The translations under genes were made by a program, and so were the position numbers. Source: Mytilus edulis (lineage: Eukaryota). Taken from it: a stretch of DNA of 64,000 bases. This document shows positions 8,440-33,700 of the stretch, piece by piece (the first letter of the stretch is position 1; each line of letters opens with the position of its first letter). The stretch spans positions 20,435,307 to 20,499,306 of the forward strand of contig NC_092353.1 in NCBI RefSeq assembly GCF_963676685.1, written 5' to 3'. Under the pieces are notes generated by a model. The model was given only the letters and a program-made list of their open reading frames with translations. It made no database searches and was not told the origin of the DNA.

Positions 8440-9600
8440 TAATTCACAAACTCTTTTATTATATATATCTTTATTCTCATAAAGCCAATGCATTACATCG
8501 GTACAGAGATAACAGATACAACAATAAATATTTACAATATGTACAAAACAAGCGAGAGAGGTTACAAAAGTTACAAGCCAGGAGTACAAACACTAGTATT
8601 TATATTTTTTATAAAAGAACAAAGCTTCTTCAGAACTGGTTTTCTTGTACTTGACATAAGTTCAGAGAATTTAACTGTATTTTGCCGTTTTGTAAAATAT
8701 TCAGTTAAAAACTCTTTGCGTTTTTGATGGAAAAAATTGCATTCAAATATAAAATGATATTCGTCACCTATTTGTCGAATGTTACATAGACTGCAAAAGC
8801 GGTTTTCTCTGATCACGTTTTGCCATCATCCTGTTTCAATCGGCAGCTTAGTATTAGTCGTTCTAAATCGACAAAAAACAATAGCGTCTTTGAAGTCCAA
8901 AATATTAAAATATTCTTCGAATTCCAAGTTTTTCTTAAAAATTTTGTAGTTAATACCTTTTGGTGAATTTTGAATGAGGGAATTCCAGTTGTGAAAATAT
9001 TGATCTAGCAATCTCTGCTTTATAACAGTTTTTAACCATTCTTTATTAACAAAATTTTGTGACTCCCATATGTATGAGAAACCACAATCTTGAAATATTT
9101 TTTGTATAAACAGGATCCATTTTATCTGGACATTATGGTGCTCGTTCATATGACGAGAAAGTTGATATAATATGAAGGAAAACTTTGCTTGTTTACCGGA
9201 TATCAAATTTGCCCAGAATAGTACTGTTCGAACTTTAATATCTATTTCGATCGGATGACGACCTAGTTCCCCGTAAACCATATAATTTGGCGTTGAGGAT
9301 TTCAAGTTTAAAAGAATTTTACAAAATTTTAAATGAATCTTTTCCAGGATATCATTATTACCAAAGCCCCATATTTCGCACCCATACAATAGAATGGGCT
9401 AAAGCCTTGATCATTTTGTCAAAAAGGTCAAGCTGACATTTAACAGAAAGCTGATACATCCTTCCTATTTTCAGGACTTCGTACATGGCTTTTAAGGCCT
9501 TATCGGATAAATATTTTTTAGTCATATTAAAGTTTCCTGTTTTAGTAAAAACAATACCCAAATAGTTAAACTGCTTTACTAAACCATTTTAAAGAGGTTA
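8440..9600 (-). mobile_element. Degraded 5'-truncated non-LTR (LINE) retrotransposon, 3' portion: RT C-terminal region plus a C-terminal Cys/His motif
   Basis: Three broken ORFs (9358-9561, 8826-9389, 8571-8816). MYGCEIWG...KFCKILL aligns with TLYGCEVWG...IKFIKEIL of the intact RT ORF at 58918-60771; CSLCN..GDEYHFIFEC resembles CLSCN..EDEYHFFSIC. Frames are disrupted. Confidence 0.7.
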
Positions 9601-10189
9601 TTTTAGATAGAAAATCTTGCTCTTGCCGAAGAATAAATAAAATATGTTTCACGTTCAAATACATATTTCAAATCTGGACTTCAGATATGTGTATCAAGAC
9701 AACCTCGTTATTCCGATACACCCATGTTACGACATACTTTTATTCAACAGTCTGATATATGAAGACAAGGGTTAATAGTTGTGTCATAAGAATGTCAACT
9801 TGTAGAGTTTAATCAATGTTCCAGAAAAAAGAACCATTTATTTATTTCAAAATTCAAAACTAGAAAACCGAGCAGCTCATTTGTCGTCCTGAATATGCAT
9901 GACATTTTTGGCTACTTGATTTACCATTGTTTAAACAAGGCAAAGTCAGTGACTTGCTATTGGGAAACCAAACAGGCCTTTGAAACTGCGATGCTATTTG
10001 TCTCAGATATGACGATTCTATGACAGTGTCGTGGGAACTAAAACATGGAACAGAACCTATTTCAAAATATAAATTGCCAAAATGTGTTGATGACGCTTTT
10101 TAAATAATTTACGTCCATGTCTACTCCTTCTAAAATTGTAATAACTGTGTTTGAATACTAACATCAAAGTTTTAAAAGAGATCAAAGTC

Positions 10190-10700
10190 GAAATTTCGAT
10201 TGTAAAAAAAAATCGAAATTTTGAGTTTACAAAAAGTCGAAATTTTGAGTTTAAAATAAGTTGAAATTTCGAGTTTAAAATAAGTCGAAATTTTGAGTTT
10301 TATAAAAGTAGAAATTTTGAGTTTAAAAAAAGTCTTAATTTCGAGTTTAAAGCGAAAATTTCGACTTTTTGTAAGTCGAAATTTCGAGTTTCAAAAAAAG
10401 TCAATATTTCGACTTTTCAAAAAGTCGAAATTTTGAGTTTTATAAAAGTCGAAATTTTGAGTTTTTAAAAAGTCGAAATTTCGAGTTTAAAGCGAAAATT
10501 TCGACTTTTTGTAAGTCGAAATTTCGAGTTTCAAAAAAGTCAATATTTCGACTTTTCAAAAAGTCGAAATTTCAAGATTTTTGAAAGTCAAAATTTCAAA
10601 TTGATGTCAAAATTACGAGATTTGAAAAGTCAAAATTTCAAGTTAAAGTCAAAATTTCGAGATTTGAAAAGTCAAAATTTCGACTTTGAAAAAAAAGTTC
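10190..10700. repeat. Minisatellite of ~31-bp units (aagtcgaaatttcgagtttaaa) with a ~120-bp higher-order duplication
   Basis: The unit contains the palindrome tcgaaatttcga; 10340-10460 is nearly identical to 10460-10580. Confidence 0.85.
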
Positions 10701-11439: not shown

Positions 11440-11830
11440 TTACATTTCGTACCTGTTGTAGATATGAAAAAAATATGGCAGACAAACAGTGGTCCTCAGA
11501 TGATAACTTGGAGGAAATATTGATACGGAATCAACTATCCAACAGGCTGATGTCACTGTAAACCCTGATACGAAATCAACTATCCAACAGGCTAATGTCA
11601 CTGTAAACCCTGACACGAAATCAACTATCCAACAGGCTAATGTCACTGTAAAGCCTGATACGAAATCAACTATCCAACAGGCTAATGTCACTGTAAAGCC
11701 TGATACGAAATCAACTATCCAACAGGCTAATGTCACTGTAACGCCTGGTACGAAATCAACTATCCAACAGGCTAATGTCACTGTAAACCCTGATACGGAA
11801 TCAACTATCCAACAGCTGATGTCACTGTAA
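11440..11830. repeat. 48-bp tandem repeat, ~8 copies (acgaaatcaactatccaacaggctaatgtcactgtaaaccctgat)
   Basis: Direct reading; the - strand ORF 11440-11781 is just the periodic translation VDFVSGFTVTLACWI x6. Confidence 0.9.
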
Positions 11831-14800
11831 ACCCTGATACGGAATCAACTATGTCACTGAAAGTTATAGAAAAGACGAGAAAAGGTCGTCCCGTAAATGT
11901 AATGGAGATACCTAAGAGATTTACAGCTAAACAGACAGTATCTGCTGCTAAGAAGAAAGATTTACTGAATCTTTGTAAAACTGGTGTTATTCCGAGAGAG
12001 TACAACAGCCTCTACAAAGGATTACAATCTGACAACAAAACACCAAATATACTCCCATATCCGGATTTTGAGGAGGATTAAATTGACTCCGAAAAAGAAG
12101 AATAATGATTAAGGCTGGAAACTGCATCAGTTGTCTTCAAAACAAATACAATCTAACAATCTTGGTTTATCAGTTATATTAATACAACTTAAGAGAATAT
12201 TAGGAAGAAGAACACTTGCGACATTTATAACATTAACTGATATAGTGAATTATGCATTTCATTTTCCATTCACGTAACCTTAGGAAACTCAATGATTGTT
12301 GCTGTGTTATATTTTGTTGTAATCAAGTACATGGAATTATTGTAGTCTAATTGCCACTTATGTCGAATTAAGGAAACATAAGAAAGTTTTCAAAAAGGAA
12401 TATTCTAAAGGGAAAGTTTAAATAAGCCTTTATTCCTCCATTATTATTTCAATTTTGAAATTACTATATTTTGTTTTATTAACAACATCCAATCTTTTTC
12501 TATTAGAACTTTTGTCTTTTCTTCTTTAAGATTCAGTGAAAATGACTTCACACAATACATACATTTATAAATTCAATTTCTTTATGTGTATATAATTTCA
12601 TCATGTGTTTTAGAAAAGAATAGTATTTATTATAAAAATAAAAAGGATCCATTGCCATAAATTCTTTTAAATTAAATGTAACCTTTTAAAACAAAAACAA
12701 AAAAATAATTGGAAAATAATTCGTCAAAAAAAATGATTTTGTTCACTGAATAATTATATATTCTTTTTAATTCACTTTCCGTGGTTACTTTGTGTATAGT
12801 TTTCCCTGTAATTACATCATCTTATATATTATTTACTTTAACTTAACAATGTTTAATTATTTTGAATTTGTTCACAGTATATAATTCAAAACAAATAAAA
12901 AATAATAAGTTATATTAATTCGTTTTTCAAATTCAACAATCTCTTATCGTTTGCAAATGCAATGATGCTTACAAAACAACATTTAGAATATGATATACCA
13001 CACAGGTTTAAATTTGTGACACAAACATCTGTATTACTTTTTAATCATACTTATCCGTTAAACGTTTCAAGTGCAATTATATCTTTTATCTGACAACCAA
13101 TTAGCATCAAATTATAAAAGGATAGTAACTATGTCTATTTTTGCAATCTATGTTAATTTGATACATTTCTGTAGTAAAATAGAATTTACATTTACAGTCA
13201 AACTTTGTATGTCGGTTTCTGAAAAGTCACAACTTTCTAGATACGAGATTGTTGCATTAACCCATCGATTTAATTTGTATTATCCCTTAAAAGACATGTT
13301 TTATGGATTTTTTAAATAGTTTTGATAGTTACTTATTCAAAAATATTATTAGTGGCAGAACGAGATAACATTTAGATAGATGACAATCTTGCTTAATAAG
13401 TGCTTTATAATATTCTTTACTTACATTCTCCGTTTATAAATTCATAAATTATAAAAACATTCAAATGGATCTCCTCTTACATCCTTTCTTGGTCCCATAA
13501 CTGTTGAATAACTAATTACAAAACACATAAATTAGTAGAGTATAAAATGTTTTAACCAACTGCCCCTACATTTGTTTCACTCACAGGGTTTACATATAAT
13601 TGACATGTTGTACGTTAATTGAATAGAAAAGTGTCTATCTTTTTTTCTACCGTTGGTAAGCGCTAGATTTTATTGCTGCAGGCATTTTGATATCAAATTG
13701 GAATGTGTTCCTGATTTCATGTGTCAGCTGCTTTTCATTCCTGATAACGAGATGTGCTGATAACACGGTCAATTAGATCATTTCACATTTAAGTAATAGG
13801 TTTTGCTTTTGCTTTTAAATACTTGACAAAATTGATCTGACATCCTTCTTTAAATGAAGATTTTTAAAAGTACATGCTTTTTTAACTATGCAATGAAGAT
13901 TTAATGTATCTGCTAACAGGGGTTCAAAATGTATTATGTATTTTTAGTTTCAATGCAAATCGTTATTTCTACATTGAACAACTAAATGTTTTGACCGCTA
14001 CATGTTTATATAAAAGAGCTTATATACTACTTCTATCCCATTAATTCATGCTGTTACTCATAGATAGATTTTGCTATCCTTGATAGGTCCTCATTGGTAC
14101 AAAATAATGCTACAATTTAGTCTGATAGAACAACATTAGATTAAATACAACTTAATATGCAAATAATGCAAATTCTAAGGCAGTTACTATCCCGTAACTC
14201 CCTTGTTATAAGCAGAAACATGAAGCAAACGGAACTTAAAAGAATCTGCAGTTTATAACTCTTGTTTCGTAGCTATATTTTAATAGGTTTTCGGTAACAA
14301 TAATAATTGTGGCAAGTGACAACGAATTCTTAAATAAAAAGAGTATCTACAGTCATCATCATCAATATGATATTTAAAAAAAAACCCATATCTGTATGTT
14401 ATTTCATCTTCACAATGTTTACTGTTGGTATGGAAGGTCTAACAGCATCACTGTCTCGTTATGGTCGTTAATATAACTATGACGCTAAAATGAAATTCAT
14501 ATTGTCGAGATCGAGTCTCTTAAATACAACATGAACACGTTAACAAAAGATGCATTATAATTTATTTGTGTAGGAAAAAAGGATTGGTAATTGTATTGTT
14601 CTTTGCAGGAGATATAACAGCTGCCACATTAATAATTACATTGTTTCAATACACCACATTGGGCTCCATATTTTTATTGATACCAATATTATTTTATGAA
14701 CCTTTTTGAATATTTTTAAATAATTCAAATTCACCTTGAAACATGTATGCATGATTAAGCAACATGCATATTGAATGATATGCGACAGAAAAGCTAATGA

Positions 14801-15339
14801 AGCAACTTGTATTGAGTAAATGTTATGCAGTAAAACTTTATAATCCGTCTAATAGTCACAGGGCTCCACATATTGCAAACTATCATTTTACTAGTAAATA
14901 TCAAATATTAAAACCATCATTAGAATCATTCGAAAGAATAAAACACAATGTCAAAAATAATTGATTTTAATGAGTTGAATATTGTTAACAGTTGCCATGT
15001 GTGCAACTAACAGTGCTATGGTTAAATATGATACTCCTGCATGGGCAAATATAATTAAGACAACGCACAGACAACTCCCTACAATAACACTGAAAACCAA
15101 TTTGAGTAACTAACTTTCTAAAACCTGGATCTTTGAATAAAATGGGAAAATATCATTACATAAAATGTAGTATGCTCAATGAAATTGACCCTTTTCAGTT
15201 ATTGAAATATTTAATTGTTGCACTATGTCTACAAATATGAACCATCGTATTTTATTTTAGGTCGTCTTGCTTACATAAAATACAGGTAAGTATGAACATC
15301 ATATATTGGAAGAAAAGAATTAAAGCTAAAAAACTCTCG

Positions 15340-15700
15340 TAATTTACTGTCGATATGCACGTCTACATAGTATGTCCTTAATATCTAAAAAGGTTTCATG
15401 AAATTCTGTTGTGTGGTTTCAGAGGAGTTGCGATGACAAACTGTTGCAGTAGTATATTTAGGCAAATAAGTTTAAAGGGGCGTAACCTCTAGAAAAAAAA
15501 TTGTATCGTAATTTCCTGTCGATATGCACATCTACATAGTATGTCCTTATTATCGACAAAGTTTCATGAAATTCTGTTGTGTGATTTCAGAGGAGTTGCG
15601 ATGACAAACTGTTGCAGTAGTATATTGGGGCAAATAAGTTCAAAGGGGATTAACTCCTAGAAAAAAATTGAATCATAATTTCCATAGTATGTCCTTATTA
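15340..15700. repeat. ~188-bp tandem duplication, ~2.3 copies
   Basis: 15340-15527 is near-identical to 15528-15700 (tttcatgaaattctgttgtgtg.tttcagaggagttgcgatgacaaactgttgcagtagtatat). Confidence 0.8.
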
Positions 15701-20179: not shown

Positions 20180-21430
20180 TAGCTTCTACAGACCCCTTAT
20201 CTGGAATCTGGGAAATGTCCTACTATAGTGAGAATTTCTTCTCACAATCGATAGGGATTTTTGTTTGGGGGTAAAAGTTTTGAAGCTATGTGTTAAGGGG
20301 AGGGGGGTCATTATGTGGTGAAAATTTTGAACATACCCTTCAGCCGATAAACGAAGACCGTTCCCTAGGTTTAGCTTCTAGATACCCCTCTACTTAGTGA
20401 GAATTTCTCCTCGCGTAAGGTTCCAGTTCTCATTATTGAATCCGACTGAAAACATATGAAAAAGCATTCCGACCTGGGAGTTCTTGCCTTCACCTGTTAA
20501 ATCTGACAGTCAAGAGACAGGTTATTCCACTGGTCGACTAAAACAAATTTCACTGACGGCAATCGATAGGGATTTTTGTTTGGGGTCAAAGTTTTGAAGC
20601 TATGTGGTAAGGGGAGGGGGTCATTATGTGGTTCATAAATATTTTTTTTTGGGGGGGGGGTCAATAAATTTGAACATATATACCCCTCAGCTGATAAACA
20701 ATGACCGTTCCCTAAGTTTAGCTTCAACAGACCACTCTACTATAGTGCGAATTTCTCCTCGCGTAAGGTTCCAGTTCTTATTATTTAAATCCAACTGAAA
20801 ACATGTGAAAAGTATTCCGACCTGGGAGTTCTTGCCTTCACCTGTTAAATCTGACAGTCAAGAGACAGGTTATTCCACTGGTCCACTAAAACAAATTTCA
20901 CTGACGGCAATCGATAGGGATTTTTGTTTGGGGTCAAAGTTTTGAAGCTATGTGGTAAGGGGAGGGGGTCATTATGTGGTTCATAAATATTTTTTTTTTG
21001 GGGGGGGGGTCAATAAATTTGAACATATATACCCCTCAGCTGATAAACAATGACCGTTCCCTAAGTTTAGCTTCAACAGACCACTCTACTATAGTGCGAA
21101 TTTCTCCTCGCGTAAGGTTCCAGTTCTTATTATTTAAATCCAACTGAAAACATGTGAAAAGTATTCCGACCTGGGAGTTCTTGCCTTCACCTGTTAAATC
21201 TGACAGTCAAGAGACAGGTTATTCCACTGGTCCACTAAAACAAATTTCACTGACGGCAATCGATAGGGATTTTTGTTTGGGGGGTCAAAGTTTTGAAGCT
21301 ATGTGGTAAGGGGAGGGGTGACCGTTCCCTAAGTTCAGCTTCTACAGACCCCTCTACTATAGTGAGAATTTCTCCTCGCGTAAGGTTCCAGTCCTCATTA
21401 TTTAAATCCAACTGAAAACATATGAAAAAG
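20180..21430. repeat. Satellite-like tandem array with a ~350-bp unit, ~3.5 copies; the first copy has an internal deletion
   Basis: Unit starts (gaccgttccctaRgtttagcttc) at ~20352, 20702, 21051 and 21319; copies >95% identical; G-runs inside the unit. Confidence 0.85.
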
Positions 21431-23829: not shown

Positions 23830-23832
23830 CAT
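23830..23832. repeat. Candidate 3-bp target-site duplication CAT, left side (repeated at 30444-30446)
   Basis: CAT directly abuts both terminal inverted repeats if they are taken as TAAGCCYCAG...; if the inverted repeat is taken to start at GCC instead, the flanks are TAA (left) and TTA (right), which are not identical. Confidence 0.4.
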
Positions 23833-23860
23833 TAAGCCCCAGTCACACTGTCACGTTTCG
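23833..23860 (+). repeat. Harbinger left terminal inverted repeat (28 bp)
   Basis: See element entry. Confidence 0.75.
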
Positions 23861-24300
23861 GCTATCCCGTTTTGCTACGTTTTCAAAACGTAGCGAAACG
23901 GCAAAATCCGTAGTGAATCGTATCGATCCGTAGTTAAAACGGCTATATACGTAGTTATGCGTAGATTGATACGTGATCGGTGCCGTTTGTATTGGTCTGC
24001 ACAATACAAACGTGACTAAAAATGAAAACGTAGTACTAACGTAGAAAAGCGCAGTAAAACGTAGAAGGAACGTAGAAATGCGTATTAGAAACGTACCTGA
24101 TACGTTCTAAAACGTATTTGATTATAATCACTAGGTGTTATTACGTTTAAGTACGTATCTGCCACGTTGCATTAGGTTTTTGTACGGTATATTACGCTTC
24201 ATGGTACGCATTAATAGGTTTCATCACGTTATTCTAGGCATTATTACGTATCGATGCGTATTACTACGCATGATTACCTTCTTCTACGCATAATCAAACC
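23861..24300. promoter_or_regulatory. Left subterminal array of short ACGTA/CGTAG/TACGT motifs (more than 25 CGTA-core copies in ~440 bp); presumed binding sites for the element's Myb/MADF-like protein and 5' region of the transposase gene
   Basis: Direct reading (aaacgtagcgaaacgg..ccgtagtgaatcgtatcgatccgtagttaaaacgg..tacgtagttatgcgtag... etc.); mirrored by an equivalent array at 30050-30415. Confidence 0.6.
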
Positions 24301-24356: not shown

Positions 24357-25645
24357 ATGGACAGACAACGGATGGAAATGAAAAATTATGGATTATTGAT
24401 ACACAATCATATTTTGAAATTGAGAATGTTGTTAAACAGACACAGACATAAACGAATAGATCACAGAGTGCGCACGGTATGGGTAAGGGATTGGATAGGT
24501 AGAAGATCTCAGTTTGGTTTTTATGCACAGCTGTTGGATGAATTGAGATGTGAAGACACCGTTTCTTTCAAAAACTTTTTGAGAGTTGATCCAACCATGT
24601 TTCAGGAAATTGTTAATAGATTAACACCAAGGCTACAAAAGAAAGACACGTGGTACCGAAAGGCATTGCCAGTTGGTCTTAAAGTAGCAATAACCCTTCG
24701 ATATCTAGCCACAGGAGACAGTTATCATTCACTTATGTATTTATTTAGAGTGCCGCACAACACGATATCCAATCGTGTAGTACAAGTTTGTGAAGCAATT
24801 ATTTCCGAGTATGCTGAAGATGTTATCAACACACCTACGGAAGAAGCTGGATGGCTAGCCATTTCGCAAGAATTTAGTGATATGTGGCAGTTTCATCATG
24901 TGCTAGGTGCACTAGATGAGAAACACGTTGCTATCAAATGTCCGGCTGGTGGTGGTTCTAAATACTATAATATAAAGGATTCCATTCTATAGTTCTAATG
25001 GGCTTAGTAGACGCTAATTATAAATTTAAATGGGTTAACTTTGGCGCACCAGGTGCTTGCTCTGATGCACAAATTTGGAATCAGTCAGACTTAAAAAATC
25101 ATATAATTGATGAGAATATGCACATACCAAAAGCAGAGCCTCTTCCGAATGATGACAAAGACATTCCGTACTTCATCGTTGGTGACGACGCGTTCGCCCT
25201 CAGAAGTTGGCTAATGAAGCCCTTTTCTAGGAGGAACATGACCCTTGAAGAGAGAGTTTTTAACTACAGGCTATCGCGATCACGAAGAGTTGTTGAAAAC
25301 GCATTTGGGATACTTGCAAATCGATTTCAATGCTTACTTTCAACTTTAAAGCAAGAGCCTAACAATGTCGTATCCATTATTCTGGCCTGTGTTTGTCTGC
25401 ACAATATAATGAGGATAAGATATCCAGGTGATCAGAACATTTTGTTAGACAGAGAAGACGAGAACCACCATCTTTTACCTGGAGCTTGGCGAGACGAAAC
25501 AAACCTGAAGGACATTGATGATGTGAAAGATCGCAACTATCCTAGCAGGCAGCAAAACAACAAAGACTGTATCTTAAACACTATTATTCGTCACCTGCAG
25601 GAAAAGTTCCATGGCAAGAACGAATGGTTCAATAACGTTTTTTAA
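24357..25645 (+). pseudogene. HARBI1/PIF-like DDE transposase (DDE_Tnp_4), ~430 codons, split by a frameshift near 24966-24980 (ORF1 GTG-start 24303-24992, ORF2 24998-25645; the homologous reading actually resumes in the second frame at ~24971 with YKGFHSIVLMGLVDANYKF)
   Basis: LPVGLKVAITLRYLATGDSYHSLMYLFRVPHNTIS (HTH region) and HVLGALDEKHVAIKCP...YYN(R/I)KGFHSIVLMGLVDANYKF..FGAPGACSDAQIWNQS...IVGDDAFALRSWLMKPF (catalytic D...D...GD region) match the Harbinger transposase architecture. The tataatataaagg stretch at 24966-24980 looks like a 1-bp indel. Confidence 0.8.
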
Positions 25646-25884: not shown

Positions 25885-26215
25885 AAAACTTTGGGATCCC
25901 GCTAACATATTTAACCCCGCCGCATCATGTATGCATGTGCCTGTCCCAAGTCATAAGCCTGTAACTCAGTGGTTGTCGTTTGTTGCTGTGTTACATATTG
26001 TTTTTCGTTCATTTATTTGTACATTAATAAGGCCGTTAGTTTTTTTTTCGTTCGAATTGTTTTACATTTGTCATTTCGGGTCCTCTTATAGCTGACTATG
26101 CGGTATGGACTTTGCTCAATGTTGAAGGCCATACGATGACCCATAGTTGTTAATTTCTGTGTCATTTGGTCTCTTGTGTAGAGTTGTCTCATTGGCAATT
26201 ACACCACATCTTCTT
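25885..26215 (+). repeat. SINE-like interspersed repeat copy nested inside the Harbinger, between the two genes
   Basis: Aligns over >300 bp with 4735-5085 (gggatcccgctaacat.tttaaccc.gcc...cctgtcccaagtca.aagcctgtaa.tcagtggttgtcgtttgtt...gttgtctcattggcaat.acaccacatct). Confidence 0.7.
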
Positions 26216-26382
26216 TTTTTATATTAACCAACAAAATAATCACTCAAACAAAAAAACTTTTAATTTTACAGACAACTGTCATAATACATGAAATAAACAA
26301 ACTGTCTACATAATAGAGTCGTCTTTTAATGTCATTCATATAAAACTTTAAAACACCTGTACGGTTCCTGGTATGAATAAGT

Positions 26383-26676
26383 TTATAATGAGAAAAGTGA
26401 CGATGAGGGTGAATCAACGTTCATTGAATCCGATTGCATTATTACACTGGCAATACTTGATGTTGTAATATCTTGTGCGCATGTAACAGGTGGAGCAGAA
26501 TGTGCTCTTATAGGTTCAATGTCTGCTTGAGTTTTAGACCGGTTTTGCAGAAAGGCGACGTCCTGTCCAGGTAGCTGATATTGCTGCTGCCATGCAGGTA
26601 GGTACCCAACATTACTTGATTGATTACAGAAGCTGCCCATGGGAACATCCAATGCAGATTGTTGACCAGTGAATCC
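26383..26676 (-). CDS. Probable terminal exon of the Harbinger Myb/MADF-like gene (…GFTGQQSALDVPMGSFCNQSSNVGYLPAWQQQYQLPGQDVAFLQNRSKTQADIEPIRAHSAPPV…SL*), followed by an ATTAAA signal ~50 nt downstream
   Basis: Strong acceptor tttttgttgttgcag|GGATTCACTGG near 26677; open to the stop at 26383; attaaaag on the - strand near 26330. Confidence 0.4.
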   Translation of the reverse strand, partial: GFTGQQSALDVPMGSFCNQSSNVGYLPAWQQQYQLPGQDVAFLQNRSKTQADIEPIRAHSAPPVTCAQDITTSSIASVIMQSDSMNVDSPSSSLFSL

Positions 26677-26879
26677 CTGCAACAACAAAAAACATGACCA
26701 TATAAACAAGTTTGATCAACTGTGTATCATCGGCGTTGGAATTAGGTACTAGAACTGGGGTTATGCGGGGTTTCAAGGAAGGATAATTAACATAACTGTA
26801 CGGGGTACTGTTGCCTTGTTCGGTAATGCCGATTTCTTAAAGATAAATAAATCCCAGTTCCTAAGTCAAGGATACACAG

Positions 26880-27060
26880 CAGTGGCGGATTCAGAGGGGG
26901 GGGGGTCATAGAGGGCGTACGCCCCCTTTATTTGTACTTTTTCTCCCCTTTTTACGTGATTTTAGCCAAAAAAAAAACAATTTCGCCTCGCTCCGCTCGC
27001 CAAGAAAATATGGTATACGCCCCTTTCTAAATTCCTGGATCCAATTCTGTAACCATATCG
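26880..27060. repeat. G-run MITE-like fragment (cagtggcggattcagaggggggggg...) related to 7546-7693, sitting in an intron of the MADF-like gene
   Basis: The terminus cagtggcggat(t/c)cagaggggg is shared with the rc of 7675-7693. Confidence 0.45.
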
Positions 27061-27282
27061 TTTTAATATACGTAGTATATATAAATATATATATATATAT
27101 GACCGGACGCATGACAATTTCAAAATGCAGCAATTACCTGAGAGTAATTACAACACGAGGCATCCAAAATATGCAGGTGAACTAAAGAAATGTGTATTTC
27201 GAAACATGTTCTGACCTTTCAGTCTTAACACAATACTAGTACTAGTAAATAATATGTGAATAATATACCTGCAGTTGCTGAA

Positions 27283-27362
27283 GACGTTGTTTATCACGGC
27301 TGCGTAGCTCCTTACTTTCATTTTGAAATCTATCCAATAGATCCATACTCTCTCTTTTAAAC
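27283..27362 (-). CDS. Candidate internal exon (…FKRESMDLLDRFQNESKELRSRDKQRLQQLQ) between acceptor tttttgctttcag| and donor CAG|gtatat
   Basis: Splice-signal reading on the - strand; frame assignment uncertain. Confidence 0.3.
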
Positions 27363-28154
27363 CTGAAAGCAAAAATTTGATATGAATTCATTTAAAAAGT
27401 GAGAATCAATATCATATTAATGTAAACTATAGCTATAATGGATTATTTTTGATACATCTCATTCTTTTGAGAAAGTGTGAGGAAAATAATTGAAAACGAA
27501 TCATACTGAAGTTTGATAAACACCAATCTTTACATATAATACTTTTGCAAAGTTTCATGAAAATCTCTCAATAACTTCAAAGTTTCATTTCAAAACGGCT
27601 TAACTTAAAAACGAAGTTTTCGATATATCTTAACATTAAACTTGTAAAAGCTCTCTGTTTAGTACTCAACAATTGAGCAAAGTGTCAATAAAAATTATGG
27701 ATTCGTTCTTAAATGACTACTTGGTAACAGTCGATGACGGACGGACAGATGGACAAGCGGACGAAAGAGCAGACAGACAGGCAATACGCAGACGAACGGA
27801 CACGCAACCAAACGTTTTTTACGAAAGGTATTACACAATGCCTTGCGACTTCGTGTGGCGGGGTATAAAAACTAATGTCATTACCATAGCGTATCATCGG
27901 ACACAGGATGTTGGTACCAGGCTTAAACGATTTGTATGGTGTTCAATTTTAAAACTGCTACAGTACATCAAAAAGTTGTTGCACTGCACCGTGGAGTTAT
28001 GTTTTTCCTCCTAAAAAATCAGAATAGACCCTCTGCTCGATGATACACGATTTTTATATAGCGTATTCGGCCGTGTATAGTACACATTCATCAAGTAACA
28101 AAACATTAACATACAAAAGCATAGCATACCTCCCCCACAATCTGTCGTCAATAC

Positions 28155-28390
28155 CTGGAAGAATGCTGACCATCCAATGTCCCCAGTTCTGCCTTTCGGG
28201 TGTCATGTCCGCGTGACTAGCCAGCTTAGCCTGCACTTGTTTCTGTAATTCAGAAGACTGTTTTATTGCTTCCTGGATGTCTTTTTCAACTGGAGATTGC
28301 ATCTTCTGGTATTTCTTTTTTGTTTTTGTTGTAACTATAGGAGAGGGAATATCTATTGTGCTGGACGTCTCCTCAAGATTACATTGCGAT
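28155..28390 (-). CDS. Candidate exon 4 of the MADF-like gene (SQCNLEETSSTIDIPSPIVTTKTKKKYQKMQSPVEKDIQEAIKQSSELQKQVQAKLASHADMTPERQNWGHWMVSILP), acceptor ttttttttctttag|, donor CCAG|gtattg
   Basis: Open frame between canonical splice signals; joins in frame with the acidic frame of the 100-nt exon 3 (..GAAAGAAG|A TCG CAA..). Confidence 0.45.
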
Positions 28391-28691
28391 CTAAAGAAAA
28401 AAAAACCGATGAAAGTTGTATTTTTTGTTCTAAACAATACAAGAAGACACCCTATCTCTACTACTACGGTGGGTTTTGAACGACCTTGACTGGCTTGACA
28501 CCCTATCTCATAACAAGAAAACAAGAAATGCCGGAAGCACAATCAATCCGATACAATTACTTTTAACTGAAAAGTATTTACAAATGTAAGTGTGATGGAC
28601 GGACGGACGGACCAAAACATTATAATAAGTCCTGATGTGAAGATATAGGTTCAATTTAACTAATTATACAAAGAAGTAAATGGTTACTGAC

Positions 28692-28791
28692 CTTCTTTCA
28701 TCGTCTTCTTTACTTTCCCCTTCGTCCTCATGTTCACTGGGAGAATCGACGCAAGCATCTGTTCCGTATTTGCCTTGAGTTTCCCTTTCAG
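28692..28791 (-). CDS. Candidate 100-nt exon 3 (acidic frame ERETQGKYGTDACVDSPSEHEDEGESKEDDER), acceptor atatttcag|CTGAAAGG, donor GAAAGAAG|gtcagt
   Basis: Consensus splice signals at both ends; acidic linkers of this kind are typical downstream of MADF domains. Confidence 0.45.
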
Positions 28792-29020
28792 CTGAAATAT
28801 TCAGACATAATCGGAACATTATTTATGTATTCGTACAAGATATATCGAGATAAAGTCAAACATTTGAAATGAAACAGCTGTAAAATGAATTTCGTAGAAT
28901 CAGAACATTAAGTATCATTTAGAAAAAGAAAAAAGGTACGGGAATTCAACAAAGGAAATAACAATAAAAGGTAAAAAAAGTGAACTGAAATATTAAGTAA
29001 TAGAAAACTGTATTGCACAC

Positions 29021-29277
29021 GTTTATTCCTCCTCTGGTTTCTATTCTGGCAATATGTGGACCCAAGAAGCCAAATTTTTCTTTGATCCATTTGTCTCTTT
29101 GAGTATCATCTTTTCTGCCTGAACCAGATTTATTGCCTTCTCGTGTCAGTCTTCCGAGCTGAGATCTCATTGACTCAACCCATGTCCTGAGAGTCTTCCA
29201 ATCCTCTACCCCTAGCTCATTAGCTTTTGCTTGCCATCGTGTATTTTTGAGAGCAGTATCTTTGTACTGATAATGAG
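29021..29277 (-). CDS. Exon 2 of the MADF-like gene, encoding the body of the MADF domain (AHYQYKDTALKNTRWQAKANELGVEDWKTLRTWVESMRSQLGRLTREGNKSGSGRKDDTQRDKWIKEKFGFLGPHI...)
   Basis: Acceptor ttttttttcttctctttcag|CTCATTATCAG at ~29278; W...W...LR..W......G......K...W..F.FL is the MADF signature; the 3' donor is uncertain (AAC|gtgtgc near 29020, or earlier). Confidence 0.65.
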
Positions 29278-29425
29278 CTGAAAGAGAAGAAAAAAATCGG
29301 TCACATTGATTTTTAAATATAAAGACCATGCTGTAAGTTTATCTATGTCTACTGGTGGGGTTAACATCTTTTGACATTTCTTCTCCGTATTAATATTTTA
29401 AATTATAGCAAATAAATACATGTAC

Positions 29426-29651
29426 CTTTGTTGTATAGAGGTTCGTTTTCTCTATACCAATCTGCCAACTCATCCTGCTTTTCTTGTGGTATTTCTAATG
29501 GCTTGCTTCTTTTGCGCTTCTCTTTATTGGTATTAGCTGGCTGTTCAGTATCACTATTTTGTGTTTGCTCATTTGTTTCTTGTGTATTAGTTGTTTCAGT
29601 CTCAGGCGCCACACTAACTATGCGGCCCCTTCCTCTGCCTCTGGTCCTCAT
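29426..29651 (-). CDS. Exon 1 of the MADF-like gene (MRTRGRGRGR...KEKRKRSKPLEIPQEKQDELADWYRENEPLYNK), donor AAAG|gtacat; the basic and RG-rich N-terminus looks like a nuclear localisation signal
   Basis: ATG at 29651; DELADWYRENEPLYNK is the start of the MADF domain, which continues in frame into exon 2 (phase 1, G|CT = Ala). Confidence 0.65.
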
Positions 29652-30049
29652 CAGAACGGTCTGGTTTGAAACACACTAAAAGATAAAATCAAATACCGGT
29701 AAGAGGAAAATTGGATTTAAAACGGACAATGTGCAACGTAGAATATTTCAAAAGAGCAATTATTATAAAAGGGAAAGCATTGACAATGTTCTAACCAAAG
29801 CTTTAAATGTTTTTTCATGTTTCATGTATCCACTCAACAAAAATCTTATCTGAAAGAAAAAAACAATAAAATCTTTCTTTTGAGTACTAAATTTTTAGAC
29901 CATAAAATGGGAACAAAATAATTTAATTACAATGACAGATGTATTAGTAATTATAAAGTGTACCTCTATTAATGTCTCCAGATTTGTTTTAGTTACTCTG
30001 CTCCCTCTTTACATCTCTGTCCTTTCTAAATTTTATTGAATAATGATGC

Positions 30050-30415
30050 CGTTTCACGATAAGTGATCACAGCGTAGTGACACGTGATACTGCGCGCAAT
30101 AAACTTGCTAAATCGTAGGAAATCGTGCAAAAGCGTACTTGAACCGATTTAGAAACGTACTAAACCCTAGTAATACGTAGTGAAACGTAGTAAACCGTAG
30201 TAAAACGTAGTTTATACGTACTGAAGCGTATTAAAACCTAGTAGAACGTACCCCTTGTAGTTATAAAAAAACCTAGCAAATCGTAACAAAACGAAACAAT
30301 ACGTAGAAGAACGTATCAAAACGTGGCGTAAACCTAGTTAAACGTACGGACCGTTAAAAATGACAAAAAAATGCCATGAAACGTAGCATTTCTACACGTA
30401 CTAAAACCTAGCTGT
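30050..30415. promoter_or_regulatory. Right subterminal ACGTA/CGTAG motif array of the Harbinger, upstream of the MADF-like gene
   Basis: aatcgtaggaaatcgtg..agcgtacttg..aaacgtactaaaccctagtaatacgtagtgaaacgtagtaaaccgtagtaaaacgtagtttatacgtactgaagcgtatt... etc. Confidence 0.6.
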
Positions 30416-30443
30416 CGAAACGTGACAGTGTGACTGAGGCTTA
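30416..30443 (-). repeat. Harbinger right terminal inverted repeat
   Basis: Reverse complement = TAAGCCTCAGTCACACTGTCACGTTTCG. Confidence 0.75.
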
Positions 30444-30454
30444 CATAAAAGTAT

Positions 30455-31730
30455 CGTATATATGTAACCCCCCAAACGTGTCTGATTCCCCCAAACGTGT
30501 CCACATCGACGTCACTGAACTGCAAAGACATGTCTAGTTGTCAAAGGGCGCTAAAGCGTGTCATTTGTATAAACGCTCAAACGTGTCCATTTTTTAATTA
30601 ACCCCCAGTCGTGTCCAATCCCCCAAACGTGTCCATACCAAGCTTTTTTTTTATTTTACTGGAACTATCATTCGTGTTCATATTATAAAAACGTAGGTTA
30701 TTTGTGTGTGGTTTTTTTTATTTTTGTCATTGTATACTCATTTTACGATCTTTTACTATTTCATTAAAAGATCAAAATAAATTACTTAAATTCTTTTTCT
30801 ATGCCCATTAAAATGTTTGTAGCATTTAACTCGTTATAATGTGCCATACTTTGTATTTTGGAAGGCAAATTTTTTTTTAATTTCTGCAACTTTTATTTGA
30901 AACAGCCTCTATATTACATAACAGACATTGAAGTAGTTTCTTACTGAAATCATAAACAAATCGGTCTTTACTCGCATTTATTTTTCTTTAGATTAAAATC
31001 CAAACTAGTGGTCATCCCAAATAACCGTAAAAGTTAATGCCCAATTTTAAATTCCCGGTTTGATAATATAACCTATTTACAGTATATATCGTTAATATGA
31101 TATCGTTCAAAAAATGAATGAAATATTTGGCACTGGACGTTATGTCTCTTGTTCGTGTGTCTTTAGTGACGCTCGTTACCTATTTATTAAAATTAGAACT
31201 GTTAAAAAAAGATGGGAGGTCAATTCGACTGAAAGCCCACCGTGCAATATTCTGATTAATATAAAAGGCATCATCGGAGTTTATTAGTATAAAAGAATTT
31301 ACATAGTAAACGATTAATTCAACTATACTAGAATTATTTGCATGTTCGCTTTAAATTAGTATGAAATAATGAAGCAAATTAGGTCAAAAGTTAATGCATA
31401 TGTTACATATTAAATTTTCAGTAATGATAATCATTACAAACCGGCATTGAACAAGTTAATGTTAATAAATTACCACTTCATCACCTGTGTCCCCATCATA
31501 GAACTGCCGTGAACGTTATTGATGTCGCATTTAGGACATGTATTTGCGCAAAAGACACGAGACGTTCTGGCGTTTAAAAGTGGACACGTTTGGGCGAATT
31601 ACAATAGTATCGGGCATGTTTGGGGGCCCGGGTTCTGAAATCGGACACGTTTGGGGAATATTGAATATTATGGACACGTTTGGGGGGAAGGACACGTATG
31701 GGAGTGTTACATATATATATATATATATAT
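30455..31730. mobile_element. MITE-like element with inverted subterminal arrays (CCCAAACGTGTCC)n at 30470-30640 and (GGACACGTTTGGG)n at 31545-31700, and TA-rich termini (gttacatatata); it directly abuts the Harbinger right end
   Basis: At least five copies of the 13-mer on each side, in opposite orientation; no coding capacity between them. Confidence 0.5.
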
Positions 31731-31899
31731 GGAATAAACACATTAAAAATTTAAATTGTTTGATCGATATTTAAATACCAAACCAGTTAGACATTTTTTA
31801 AACAGAATAGCTTGAATGCCTTATATGTTTCACAATTATACTCTCCGCTTTGAGTCAGAATAAGGCATACAATTAAATTTACAAGTCGATCATACGGTC

Positions 31900-32130
31900 A
31901 TTGCTATATTAATAGTATCAAATTTACAACACAGAAAGCCCTCCTAGTCAGACTAATATGTATTATGCTTGATGGTCATTGCTATATGAAATAGTATCAA
32001 AATTACAACACAGAAAGCCCTTCTAGTTAGACTAATATGTACTATGCTTGATGGTTAATGCTTTATGAAACAGTTTCAAAATTACAACACAGGGAGCCCT
32101 CCGAGTCAGACTAATATGTAGTATGTTCGT
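31900..32130. repeat. ~73-bp tandem repeat x3 (..tcattgctatatgaaatagtatcaaaattacaacacagaaagccct.ctagtcagactaatatgta.tatgct)
   Basis: Direct reading. Confidence 0.8.
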
Positions 32131-33109
32131 TGATAATTCACATTTGATTCTGTATATATCCATTAAGACCTAACTTTATGTAGACGCCCTACTTAATTTC
32201 AAATACGGTTTCAAACCATAGCCAGCGTAGATTTCAATTTGATATTTGTGTAAAATTGACAGATTATTTAATTTCACTTTCAGATATATTGATGATGTTC
32301 TTTCCATAAACAATCCGAACTTTTCTGATTGGGTTCCATAAATATATCCCCCAGAACTAGATATTAAAGAAACAACAGACACGGCTTCCACCGCCTCATT
32401 TTTAGACTTATATCTCGAATTTGACTAACACAGTCATCTCAGTACCAAAATCTTTTACAAACGAGACGATTTTAATTTTGAAATTATAAATTTCCCCCAC
32501 CTTAGTAGCAATATACCAACTTCACCTGCATATGTGATATATATTTCCCAACTTATTTGATATTAAAGAGCTTGCAGCTCCTACTCAGACTTTGTAAAAC
32601 GTCATCAGTGTCTGAGTAGAAAGTAAATGAACCAGGGTTATGCCAAAGAACGTCTCGTCCTTTTTCTTAAAAAGTTCATCGGAAGGTACCAAGACCTTGT
32701 TGATAAATATTCCGTATCAACTTCACAAATAATACACGATGGTCTTGATGTATAGATTCTGCGTACTGGTGTTGTTTATCATCTTAACAACGTGTTTTAT
32801 AGTTATTTCATTTGTCTTTGTTCTATTATTAATATTACTTTTACTGTTGAAAGGTTTTATGTGATATCCGTTTGACGTGGCTCGGTACTTGTACATCTCG
32901 TCAATTTGTTTGTATTGTCCTTCAATTTTTGGTGTCGTGCTTTGTATATGAGACTTTTTGTATTTCTTTGGTTCTTATAACGTGACTCTGTACTTCAAAA
33001 GATCCCGTCAGTATGATATTGTTCTAGTTTATGTCATTATGATATATTTCTATTATGAATTACAAAATACGTTGAACCATAAACGTCAAAATCATTCAAT
33101 CGCGTAGTG

Positions 33110-33700
33110 GAATTTACTATTTGTGGATTCTTATAAATTCTATATGTAACTTTTGGACTATTTTCAATCTCGGTCTATTTCTGAAATTTATTCTTACATA
33201 CTTTTAATTTTTTAACCCTATATGCTAACGTTGCCTTTGTAAATTTTAAAATTGATTGTATGCACATTGAACGACAAATTTATGTGACGTATAAAATTTT
33301 CTGACGTCAGACACTCAAATCAATGAATGTGTTTGTAGATAGATGTGTTTGTTTTCTGTTGAATTGTTCCTTTTAAAATTGTTATACGATGATGACTGAT
33401 AGTGGAATTAACTATTTGTGGATTCTTATAAATTCTATATATAACTTTTGGACTATTTTCAGTCTCGGTCTATTTCTGATATTTATTCTTACATACTTTT
33501 TAACCCTATATGCTAACATTGCCTATGTATATTTAAAAATTATGCATGCACATTGAACGACAAATTTATGTGACGTATTAAAAATTTTCTGACGTCAGAG
33601 ACACAAATCAATAAATGTGTTTGTAGATAGATGTTTTTGTGTTCTGTTAAGTTGTTCCTTTTAAAATTGTTATACGATGATGACTGATGTGCCCATATTT
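33110..33700. repeat. ~296-bp tandem duplication x2; each unit contains the palindrome TGACGTCAG
   Basis: 33110-33405 is near-identical to 33406-33700. Confidence 0.85.

Follow-up and report, generated by a model that had tools for sequence, protein, structure and literature searches.

The locus carries two genes in tail-to-tail (convergent) orientation, both within one inverted-repeat-bounded element of the 64,000-nt Mytilus edulis window, that is, the whole stretch of DNA analyzed. A single-exon DDE_Tnp_4 transposase gene lies on the plus strand at 24357 to 25635, and a MADF gene with six coding exons and one upstream exon lies on the minus strand. The first-pass annotation had described the latter as a multi-exon minus-strand MADF/Myb-like gene convergent with the transposase, and both the exon projection and the Pfam matches agreed with this description. 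The transposase ORF of the window matched the Pfam profiles DDE_Tnp_4 (86.2 bits) and Plant_tran (32 bits), and its intact form, a 426-aa protein at locus L004, is annotated with PF13359/PF04827. Terminal inverted repeats of 25 bp with one mismatch enclose the two genes, with GCCCCAGTCACACTGTCACGTTTCG on the left (23836 to 23860, plus strand) and GCCTCAGTCACACTGTCACGTTTCG on the right (30416 to 30440, minus strand). Two matches to the repeat were found in the window, where 0 were expected, and the element spans 23835/6 to 30440 (approximately 6.6 kb). The terminal-repeat search gave just these two ends, so neither a second copy of the element nor a miniature derivative lies elsewhere in the window. 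Three features of PIF/Harbinger elements, namely, a DDE_Tnp_4 gene, a Myb-like/SANT/MADF gene within the same unit, and terminal inverted repeats, were found here. [quoted passage not shown]

The splicing of the MADF gene, as modeled from annotation models and conservation, is given below with ^ marking junctions; all exons are on the minus strand. The upstream 5' exon (29964 to 30014) has an ATG at 30014, is spliced to 29675, and reads MQRGSRVTKTNLETLIE in intact copies. Exon 1 (29426 to 29675) follows an acceptor that precedes 29675, and most models start at the ATG at 29651. It encodes an RG-rich N terminus, the basic motif KEKRKRSK, which is a candidate nuclear localization signal, and the first MADF helix. 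As previously proposed, the 226 nt from 29651 to 29426 end with ...DELADWYRENEPLYNK at the donor AAAG^gtacat, and the exon 2 acceptor ...tttcttctctttcag^ lies before 29277, from which the MADF frame continues as AHYQYKD...KWIKEKFGFLGP. This acceptor has seven T's versus the eight quoted earlier, which is a trivial difference. Exon 2 (29021 to 29277, 257 nt), whose end was corrected to 29021, encodes the remainder of the MADF domain and ends in phase 0 at the donor ATAAAC^gtgtgc. The expected acidic exon of 100 nt was located at 28692 to 28791 as exon 3, an acidic linker that measures 100 nt in the window but is one nucleotide longer (101 nt) in three other copies. Exon 4 (28130 to 28390) is 261 nt long, which is the conserved form and the length required by the conserved full-length frame. 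The 236-nt exon of the first-pass annotation corresponds to an annotated alternative donor after 28155, which yields the "isoform X2" models, but it is out of frame and gives them a frameshifted tail. Exon 5 (27269 to 27362, 94 nt) completes a conserved C-terminal helical module (...WGR^FKRESMDLLDRFQNES...). This exon and the upstream exon at 30014 to 29964 were missing from the earlier, incomplete exon list. The terminal coding exon, exon 6 (26383 to 26676), encodes a Q/S-rich low-complexity tail and ends with a TAA stop at 26385 to 26383. An ATTAAA polyadenylation-signal candidate is located 53 nt past the stop (26325 to 26330, minus strand), in line with the terminal exon anticipated before. 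When the six coding exons were projected onto the M. galloprovincialis copy L002 (99% identical), they gave exactly the 417-aa protein XP_076112557.1. This agreement with an independently annotated RefSeq protein is far beyond chance. In addition, the read-through translation of exons 1 and 2 of the window is identical to the 185-aa M. edulis protein XP_071136887.1.

Next, we examined the domain encoded by exons 1 and 2. The joined exons matched the Pfam profile MADF_DNA_bdg (PF10545, Myb/SANT-like DNA-binding domain; cutoff, 22 bits) at 26.0 bits (E = 1.2e-5) over profile positions 2 to 84 of 84, and the absence of such a match was what the first-pass annotation had named as evidence against its model. 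Neither exon 1 alone nor exon 2 alone matched the profile. Full-length proteins scored 22.4 to 22.5 bits, and the family protein P0001 scored 19.3 bits. Because single sequences are borderline, the MADF assignment rests on the whole family: 36 of the 39 distant relatives (22 to 31% identity) matched the profile, with a best E value of 1.7e-11. AlphaFold modeled the MADF domain (approximately residues 60 to 160) with pLDDT values of 90 to 98; the predicted fold is helical and Myb/SANT-like, and the conserved tryptophans are regularly spaced. This fold is about as close to Zeste as it is to the GT-1 trihelix domain and to homeodomains. A profile search against PDB sequences aligned helix 3 with the homeodomain recognition helix at a nonsignificant E value of 0.03, and a Foldseek search of the full-length model against the PDB gave no match at E < 1. 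It had been suggested that a MADF-type rather than a classic SANT/trihelix partner would help classify this Harbinger lineage. This does not hold, as the literature applies "MADF" and "SANT/trihelix Myb-like" to one Harbinger partner domain; these are names of the same domain and therefore provide no classifying trait.

The C-terminal part of the protein contains a second conserved region. This module of about 55 to 90 residues (approximately residues 261 to 345 of P0001) spans the exon 4/5 junction and has the core WG-x-W-x2-S-x9-LW-x2-F-x2-ES-x2-LL-x2-Y-x3-S. It is kept in dozens of MADF proteins at 22 to 31% identity, one of them from a sea urchin, and is predicted with pLDDT values of 83 to 97. 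The module had no Pfam match, and the profile search against PDB sequences was also empty. A C-terminal motif (W-x-VSILP-x-IDD-x-LW-x-FK) was considered as a BESS motif because of a loose likeness by eye, and this assignment was rejected, as Pfam gave no support. The BESS profile (PF02944) matched neither the C-terminal segment nor protein P0013 at E ≤ 10, and it was also absent from the 39 relatives at E ≤ 0.01 and from 30 C-terminal segments at E ≤ 1. We tentatively suggest that the module may be a docking domain for the Harbinger transposase that has so far escaped annotation; if so, it could explain in physical terms why two proteins are required in a large metazoan clade of these elements.

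The ends of the element and its relatives were then compared. Directly outside the left terminal repeat lie TTA (23832 to 23834) and A (23835), and TTA (30441 to 30443) follows the right one. The flanks read TTAA^GCC...GGC^TTA(A/C) in the window and in the copies L001, L002, L004, and L005. Two readings fit these flanks: TTA/TAA, which leaves one terminal base unpaired, or a 2-bp TA, in which case the terminal repeats begin in A. The second would be a variant not known among the PHIS groups. A 3-bp TWA target-site duplication is a group-defining trait of PIF/Harbinger (PHIS superfamily) elements (PMC4482050). The terminal repeat and the mPing end GGCCAGTCACAATGG (PMC2836001) have CCAGTCACA in common. 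Short repeats lie inside both ends. On the left (23875 to 24095, plus strand), six copies of AACGTAG/AAACGTAG include an array with a 31-bp period at 24025 to 24095. On the right (30153 to 30386, plus strand), AAACGTAGTA is repeated 9.7 times with a 10-bp period at 30153 to 30250, and AACGTAG is present at 30380 to 30386. The window contains 13 AACGTAG sites versus 4.9 expected; the subterminal regions at the two ends account for nine of them, and one more lies inside the element. The arrays at the two ends are in direct, not inverted, orientation. By analogy with related elements, the subterminal AAACGTAG repeats are candidate binding sites of the MADF protein.

The copies L002, L004, and L005 are 97.5 to 99% similar to the window copy, and the similarity stops exactly at the terminal repeats. 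The element is multicopy across four Mytilus species (97.5 to 99% identity). Its proteins group into one cluster of 29 and one of 10, which together cover M. edulis, M. galloprovincialis, and M. trossulus, and a homolog is present in M. coruscus. Another copy, L001, is an independent MADF-only deletion derivative. Since both genes are intact in at least one copy, L004 of M. edulis, the element family may still be mobile.

The window copy itself is inactivated in both genes. In exon 3 of the MADF gene, the A run at 28771 to 28769 is one base short (AAAA>AAA), which causes a frameshift. Under canonical splicing, the shifted frame meets a premature TAG at 28355 to 28353 in exon 4, and the product ends at 206 aa. 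The first-pass annotation had been unable to settle the phase between exons 2 and 3 by hand. The anomaly it met is real, but its cause is this window-specific 1-nt deletion. Codon 2 of the 5' exon is TAA in the window (30011 to 30009, C>T; CAA>TAA), and therefore this exon can only be an untranslated leader here. A further window-specific lesion, an in-frame deletion of 21 nt near 29628 in exon 1, removes seven RG-repeat residues. The transposase gene has lost one nucleotide at each of two places, about 24972 (TT>T) and about 25548 (AA>A). None of these lesions (three 1-nt deletions, the 21-nt deletion, and CAA>TAA) was present in the other copies compared. At best, the window copy can make a MADF-only fragment of 185 to 206 aa. 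These results indicate an ordinary two-gene PIF/Harbinger transposon, both genes of which are dead in the window copy through single-base deletions. The copy could move only if both proteins were supplied in trans by intact copies elsewhere.

We considered whether the MADF gene is intact in the animal and the frameshifts in exon 3 and the transposase are assembly or sequencing errors. All three are 1-nt deletions in short runs, the exon 3 lesion being one A lost from an A run, and such deletions are a typical error of long-read assembly. However, the runs are just 2 to 4 nt long, and the copy also has a nonsense substitution, the 21-nt deletion, and approximately 1 to 2% substitutions, which fits an aging dead copy. 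The RefSeq model with the identical product ends by read-through and does not enter exon 3, although this model may share the assembly of the window and is then not independent. Taken together, an error of this kind is unlikely. Less likely still is that the truncated product, which retains the candidate localization signal and the complete MADF domain and lacks the C-terminal module, acts as a functional MADF-only regulator that occupies the subterminal sites of the family and damps transposition, in the manner of truncated repressors known from other transposons. The lesion does spare the entire MADF domain and the basic motif, RefSeq annotates just such a 185-aa product, L001 arose independently as a MADF-only derivative, and MADF-only derivatives are reported to be expanded and expressed in Caenorhabditis inopinata. 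However, the premature stop precedes three further exon junctions, so that the canonical mRNA would be an expected target of nonsense-mediated decay, and random decay explains the data in full.

Alternative splicing that rescues the frame appears very improbable. Joining a donor at 29062 (TTGG^gtccac) to exon 3 would give 396 aa, and skipping exon 3 via 29019 (ACGT^gtgcaa) would give 377 aa, both open to the normal stop. However, both donors match the consensus poorly, and the strong canonical donor at 29021 is unaltered. None of the approximately 25 annotated family proteins examined has either join; all have ...GGIN^LKEKLK.... Both models were rejected, as no annotated homolog uses them, and they are needless because the 1-nt deletion explains the phase problem. 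Finally, a domesticated host MADF transcription-factor gene beside transposon remains is hardly credible: Harbinger MADF and transposase genes have been domesticated repeatedly (PMC9710019), and no transposase was found beside the sea urchin relative (L006), but here the MADF gene lies with a transposase between intact inverted terminal repeats, recurs in several Mytilus genomes as many copies of approximately 98 to 99% identity whose loci are unrelated, and is pseudogenized in the window; it shows neither the single copy, nor the freedom from terminal repeats, nor the intact conserved ORF of a domesticated gene.

The Harbinger literature describes a two-protein mechanism of transposition (PMC2836001, PMC9710019). 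Homology with zebrafish Harbinger3_DR and rice Ping/Pong suggests that the protein of about 417 aa from intact copies would enter the nucleus via the candidate signal KEKRKRSK and that its MADF domain would bind the subterminal AAACGTAG arrays. The C-terminal helical module would probably be the part by which the protein recruits and imports the transposase, which would then cut the element out and paste it into T(T/A)A sites.

The MADF gene is ordinary and was annotated before, and its only unannotated feature is the conserved C-terminal helical module, a candidate transposase-interaction domain. There is little biological news in a dead copy of a routine transposon gene. The analysis provides the correct 6(+1)-exon model and the element boundaries for a young Mytilus Harbinger family. 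It also shows that transposon genes underlie the public "uncharacterized protein" and "MADF domain-containing protein" entries of four mussel species and that several of these models are chimeric or frameshifted. The proteins XP_076112557.1, CAG2207735.1/VDI21179.1 (UniProt "MADF domain-containing protein," A0A8B6HQH8), and XP_071136887.1 are 93 to 100% identical to the window gene. The database names of the matching Mytilus proteins are "uncharacterized" or "MADF domain-containing," with no transposon label in the source names retrieved. The full-length annotated models derive from intact copies, whereas the window copy has the exon 3 frameshift and is without the seven residues of the RG repeat.

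Among known systems, the closest are the Myb-like/MADF ORF1 genes of PIF/Harbinger elements (zebrafish Harbinger3_DR, rice Ping/Pong, and Caenorhabditis Turmoil/Harbinger MADF), which likewise belong to two-gene inverted-repeat elements with a DDE_Tnp_4 partner. Like the known ORF1 proteins, the Mytilus protein has a predicted N-terminal Myb/SANT/MADF three-helix DNA-binding domain, and its element has short subterminal repeats. Its length of about 417 aa is near the 300 to 400 aa described for ORF1 proteins. Frameshifted MADF loci and MADF-only derivatives are reported in C. inopinata, as in the window and L001. In contrast, the Mytilus gene has six coding exons in tail-to-tail arrangement, whereas the Caenorhabditis elements are head-to-head. 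The Mytilus flanks are TTAA-like and give an ambiguous reading of the 3-bp target-site duplication canonical for PIF/Harbinger. Unlike known ORF1 proteins, the Mytilus protein carries the conserved C-terminal helical module, for which neither Pfam nor the PDB gave a match. The Drosophila-type MADF-BESS factors (Adf-1 family) have in common with it a MADF_DNA_bdg domain with regularly spaced tryptophans. However, the Mytilus protein has no Pfam BESS, and its gene is transposon borne and multicopy and is not a host regulator. The pairs NAIF1/HARBI1, ALP2/ALP1, and HDP2/HDP1 show the same pairing of a Myb-like DNA binder with a Harbinger-type transposase (PMC9710019). Those pairs are single-copy conserved host genes with no terminal repeats, whereas the Mytilus gene is a decaying copy from a recently active transposon family.

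The MADF gene at 26383-29651 is encoded on the minus strand in six coding exons, all of which have GT-AG borders. Coding exon 1 (29651-29426, 226 nt) starts with an ATG at 29651 and ends with ...DELADWYRENEPLYNK at the donor AAAG|gtacat, and exon 2 (29277-29021, 257 nt) follows a pyrimidine-rich acceptor before 29277, with the frame continuing as AHYQYKDTALKN...KWIKEKFGFLGP. The remaining exons are exon 3 (28791-28692; 100 nt in the window and 101 nt in other copies), exon 4 (28390-28130, 261 nt), exon 5 (27362-27269, 94 nt), and terminal exon 6 (26676-26383, 294 nt), which carries a TAA stop at 26385-26383 and is followed on the same strand by ATTAAA at 26330-26325. An upstream 5' exon, also on the minus strand, extends from an ATG at 30014 to 29964 and is spliced to an acceptor before 29675. 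The first-pass annotation had proposed a spliced minus-strand gene here, and its ATG, exon 1 donor, exon 2 acceptor, 100-nt exon, terminal exon, and ATTAAA were all located; its exon list was right in outline but omitted the 94-nt exon as well as the 5' one. The coding exons were derived from cluster-mate proteins and phase bookkeeping. A protein search returned Mytilus proteins with 93% identity, which share a cluster with intact forms of 417 and 442 aa. When the exon coordinates were projected by DNA alignment onto the M. galloprovincialis locus L002 (99% identical), the CDS translation equaled RefSeq XP_076112557.1 exactly (417 aa), thereby independently validating every junction.

The joined translation of exons 1 and 2, which had been named as the check on the MADF assignment, scored 26.0 bits against Pfam MADF_DNA_bdg (cut-off 22; E 1.2e-5), with the match spanning positions 2-84 of the 84-position profile, and the assignment stood. 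Neither exon alone gave a MADF match in the Pfam profile search, indicating that the exon 1/exon 2 splice rebuilds a complete MADF domain. An exhaustive phmmer search found 769 relatives of the M. edulis protein (252 with E<=1e-10). In an alignment with 38 long relatives (22-31% identity), two modules were conserved: the MADF domain, whose tryptophans are invariant or nearly so, and a C-terminal helical module (WG-x-W...S...LW..F..ES..LL..Y...S) across the exon 4/5 junction. The position of the latter favours the 261-nt version of exon 4 as the functional one. The 236-nt exon 4 listed previously ends at the donor after 28155, which is that of annotated 'isoform X2' models, whose tails (…SILPG|LKERVWIYW…) do not follow the reading frame of the conserved sequence. 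MADF_DNA_bdg matched 36 of the 39 aligned proteins, and none of the 39 matched BESS or another Myb family. AlphaFold pLDDT was 90-98 for the MADF domain and 83-97 for the C-terminal helices, the remainder being disordered. The unannotated C-terminal module had no Pfam or PDB sequence match across the 30 relatives searched, and our impression of a BESS likeness was not borne out by profile search.

The gene lies within a PIF/Harbinger transposon bounded by 25-bp inverted terminal repeats (GCCYCAGTCACACTGTCACGTTTCG) at 23836-23860 and 30416-30440; no further match occurs in the window. Full-length copies at L002, L004 (M. edulis), and L005 showed 97.5-99% identity, with similarity stopping at the terminal repeats. 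The plus-strand DDE_Tnp_4 transposase gene (24357-25635, 86 bits) is convergent with the MADF gene, with stop codons approximately 750 bp apart. In L004, the transposase is one 426-aa ORF and both genes are intact; thus, some members of the family may remain autonomous. The M. trossulus copy (L001, 7165-11722) is an internally deleted derivative in which the equivalents of window positions 24294 and 28237 are joined. It lacks the transposase, its MADF gene is cut off in exon 4 to give the 256-aa model P0002, and an insertion of approximately 2 kb lies at the equivalent of 30198-30202. At L003, a short derivative of approximately 830 bp (8738-9563) with the element's terminal repeats abuts a full-length copy (9579 onward) with only AGCTAAA between them, which suggests that the family also has miniature derivatives. 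The stretch separating the 3' ends of the MADF and transposase genes (25901-26225) showed 70-89% identity to unrelated flank positions in L001, L003, L004, and L005 and appears to be a distinct dispersed repeat lying within the element. The element flanks read TTAA|GCC...GGC|TTA; they form a canonical TTA/TAA duplication only with one terminal base unpaired and otherwise imply a 2-bp TA duplication (group definitions in PMC4482050).

The window copy had been assumed to be intact, but exon 3, which is 101 nt and reads LKEKLKAKYGTDACVDSPSEHEDEEE... in three other copies, has lost one A from the run at 28771-28769 (CAAGGCAAAATACGG to CAAGGCAAATACGG). This deletion explains the exon 2/3 phase problem met in the first-pass annotation. 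With canonical junctions, the window mRNA is predicted to encode 206 aa, ending at a TAG at 28355-28353, and this product retains the MADF domain and loses all downstream sequence. Further window-specific changes are an in-frame 21-nt deletion in the exon 1 RG repeat, a CAA>TAA change in the second codon of the upstream exon, and five substitutions in exons 3-5. The window transposase ORF is broken by two 1-nt deletions (approximately 24972 and 25548). RefSeq XP_071136887.1 (M. edulis, 185 aa) is identical to the window exon 1 plus exon 2 read-through product and probably represents this locus, or an allele of it, in the public annotation. The family is young and multi-copy, and its member in the window is pseudogenised.

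Units of AAACGTAG crowd both subterminal regions (23875-24095 and 30153-30386) at a spacing of approximately 10-11 bp, or one helical turn, and TRF reported a 31-bp-period array at 24025-24095 and a 10-bp-period array at 30153-30250. AACGTAG is present in 13 copies across the window, where shuffling predicts 4.9±2.2; nine copies lie within approximately 260 bp of either terminus and a tenth is inside the element. The units are on the plus strand at both ends, direct rather than inverted, which would be unexpected if the ends were recognised symmetrically. PIF/Harbinger elements require two proteins. One of them, the Myb-like ORF1 protein, binds the ends of the element or motifs in its subterminal regions; it also interacts with the transposase, whose nuclear localisation depends on it (PMC2836001; PMC9710019). 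By analogy with this established superfamily work, the 417-aa product of an intact copy would be directed to the nucleus, with KEKRKRSK as a candidate signal found by inspection, its MADF domain would bind the AAACGTAG arrays as candidate sites, and it would recruit the transposase, most plausibly through the conserved C-terminal module. Neither protein can come from the window copy, but this copy could be mobilised in trans because its terminal repeats and arrays remain.

Other repeats were observed in the window. Directly right of the Harbinger end, mutually inverted clusters of CCCCCAAACGTGTCC-type motifs at 30470-30637 and 31573-31705 are possibly another small inverted-repeat element of approximately 1.2 kb. 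At 20333-21318, 2.8 copies of a 349-bp unit follow one another (96% identity), and mechanical ORFs there repeat one peptide. Tandem arrays are located at 10184-10684 (24/140-bp units containing the palindrome-like TCGAAATTTCGA), 11521-11852 (45 bp x7.4, 95% matches), 15337-15683 (168 bp x2.1), 31896-32125 (79 bp x2.9), and 33105-33688 (288 bp x2.0).

Public models also join the transposon MADF protein to unrelated sequence. P0003 (M. coruscus) has a Paired-domain tail, and P0011 (M. edulis) has 140 foreign residues at its N-terminus; both are likely chimeric predictions due to transposon insertions. UniProt already names members of the protein cluster 'MADF domain-containing protein', and curated bivalve libraries already hold 58 PIF-Harbinger consensus sequences (PMC10294476). 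A MADF-type rather than a classic SANT/trihelix partner had been put forward as a trait classifying this lineage; according to the quoted literature, that contrast does not exist. Altogether, the MADF gene is a real, ordinary, and already annotated finding: within PIF/Harbinger, it is a standard partner gene.
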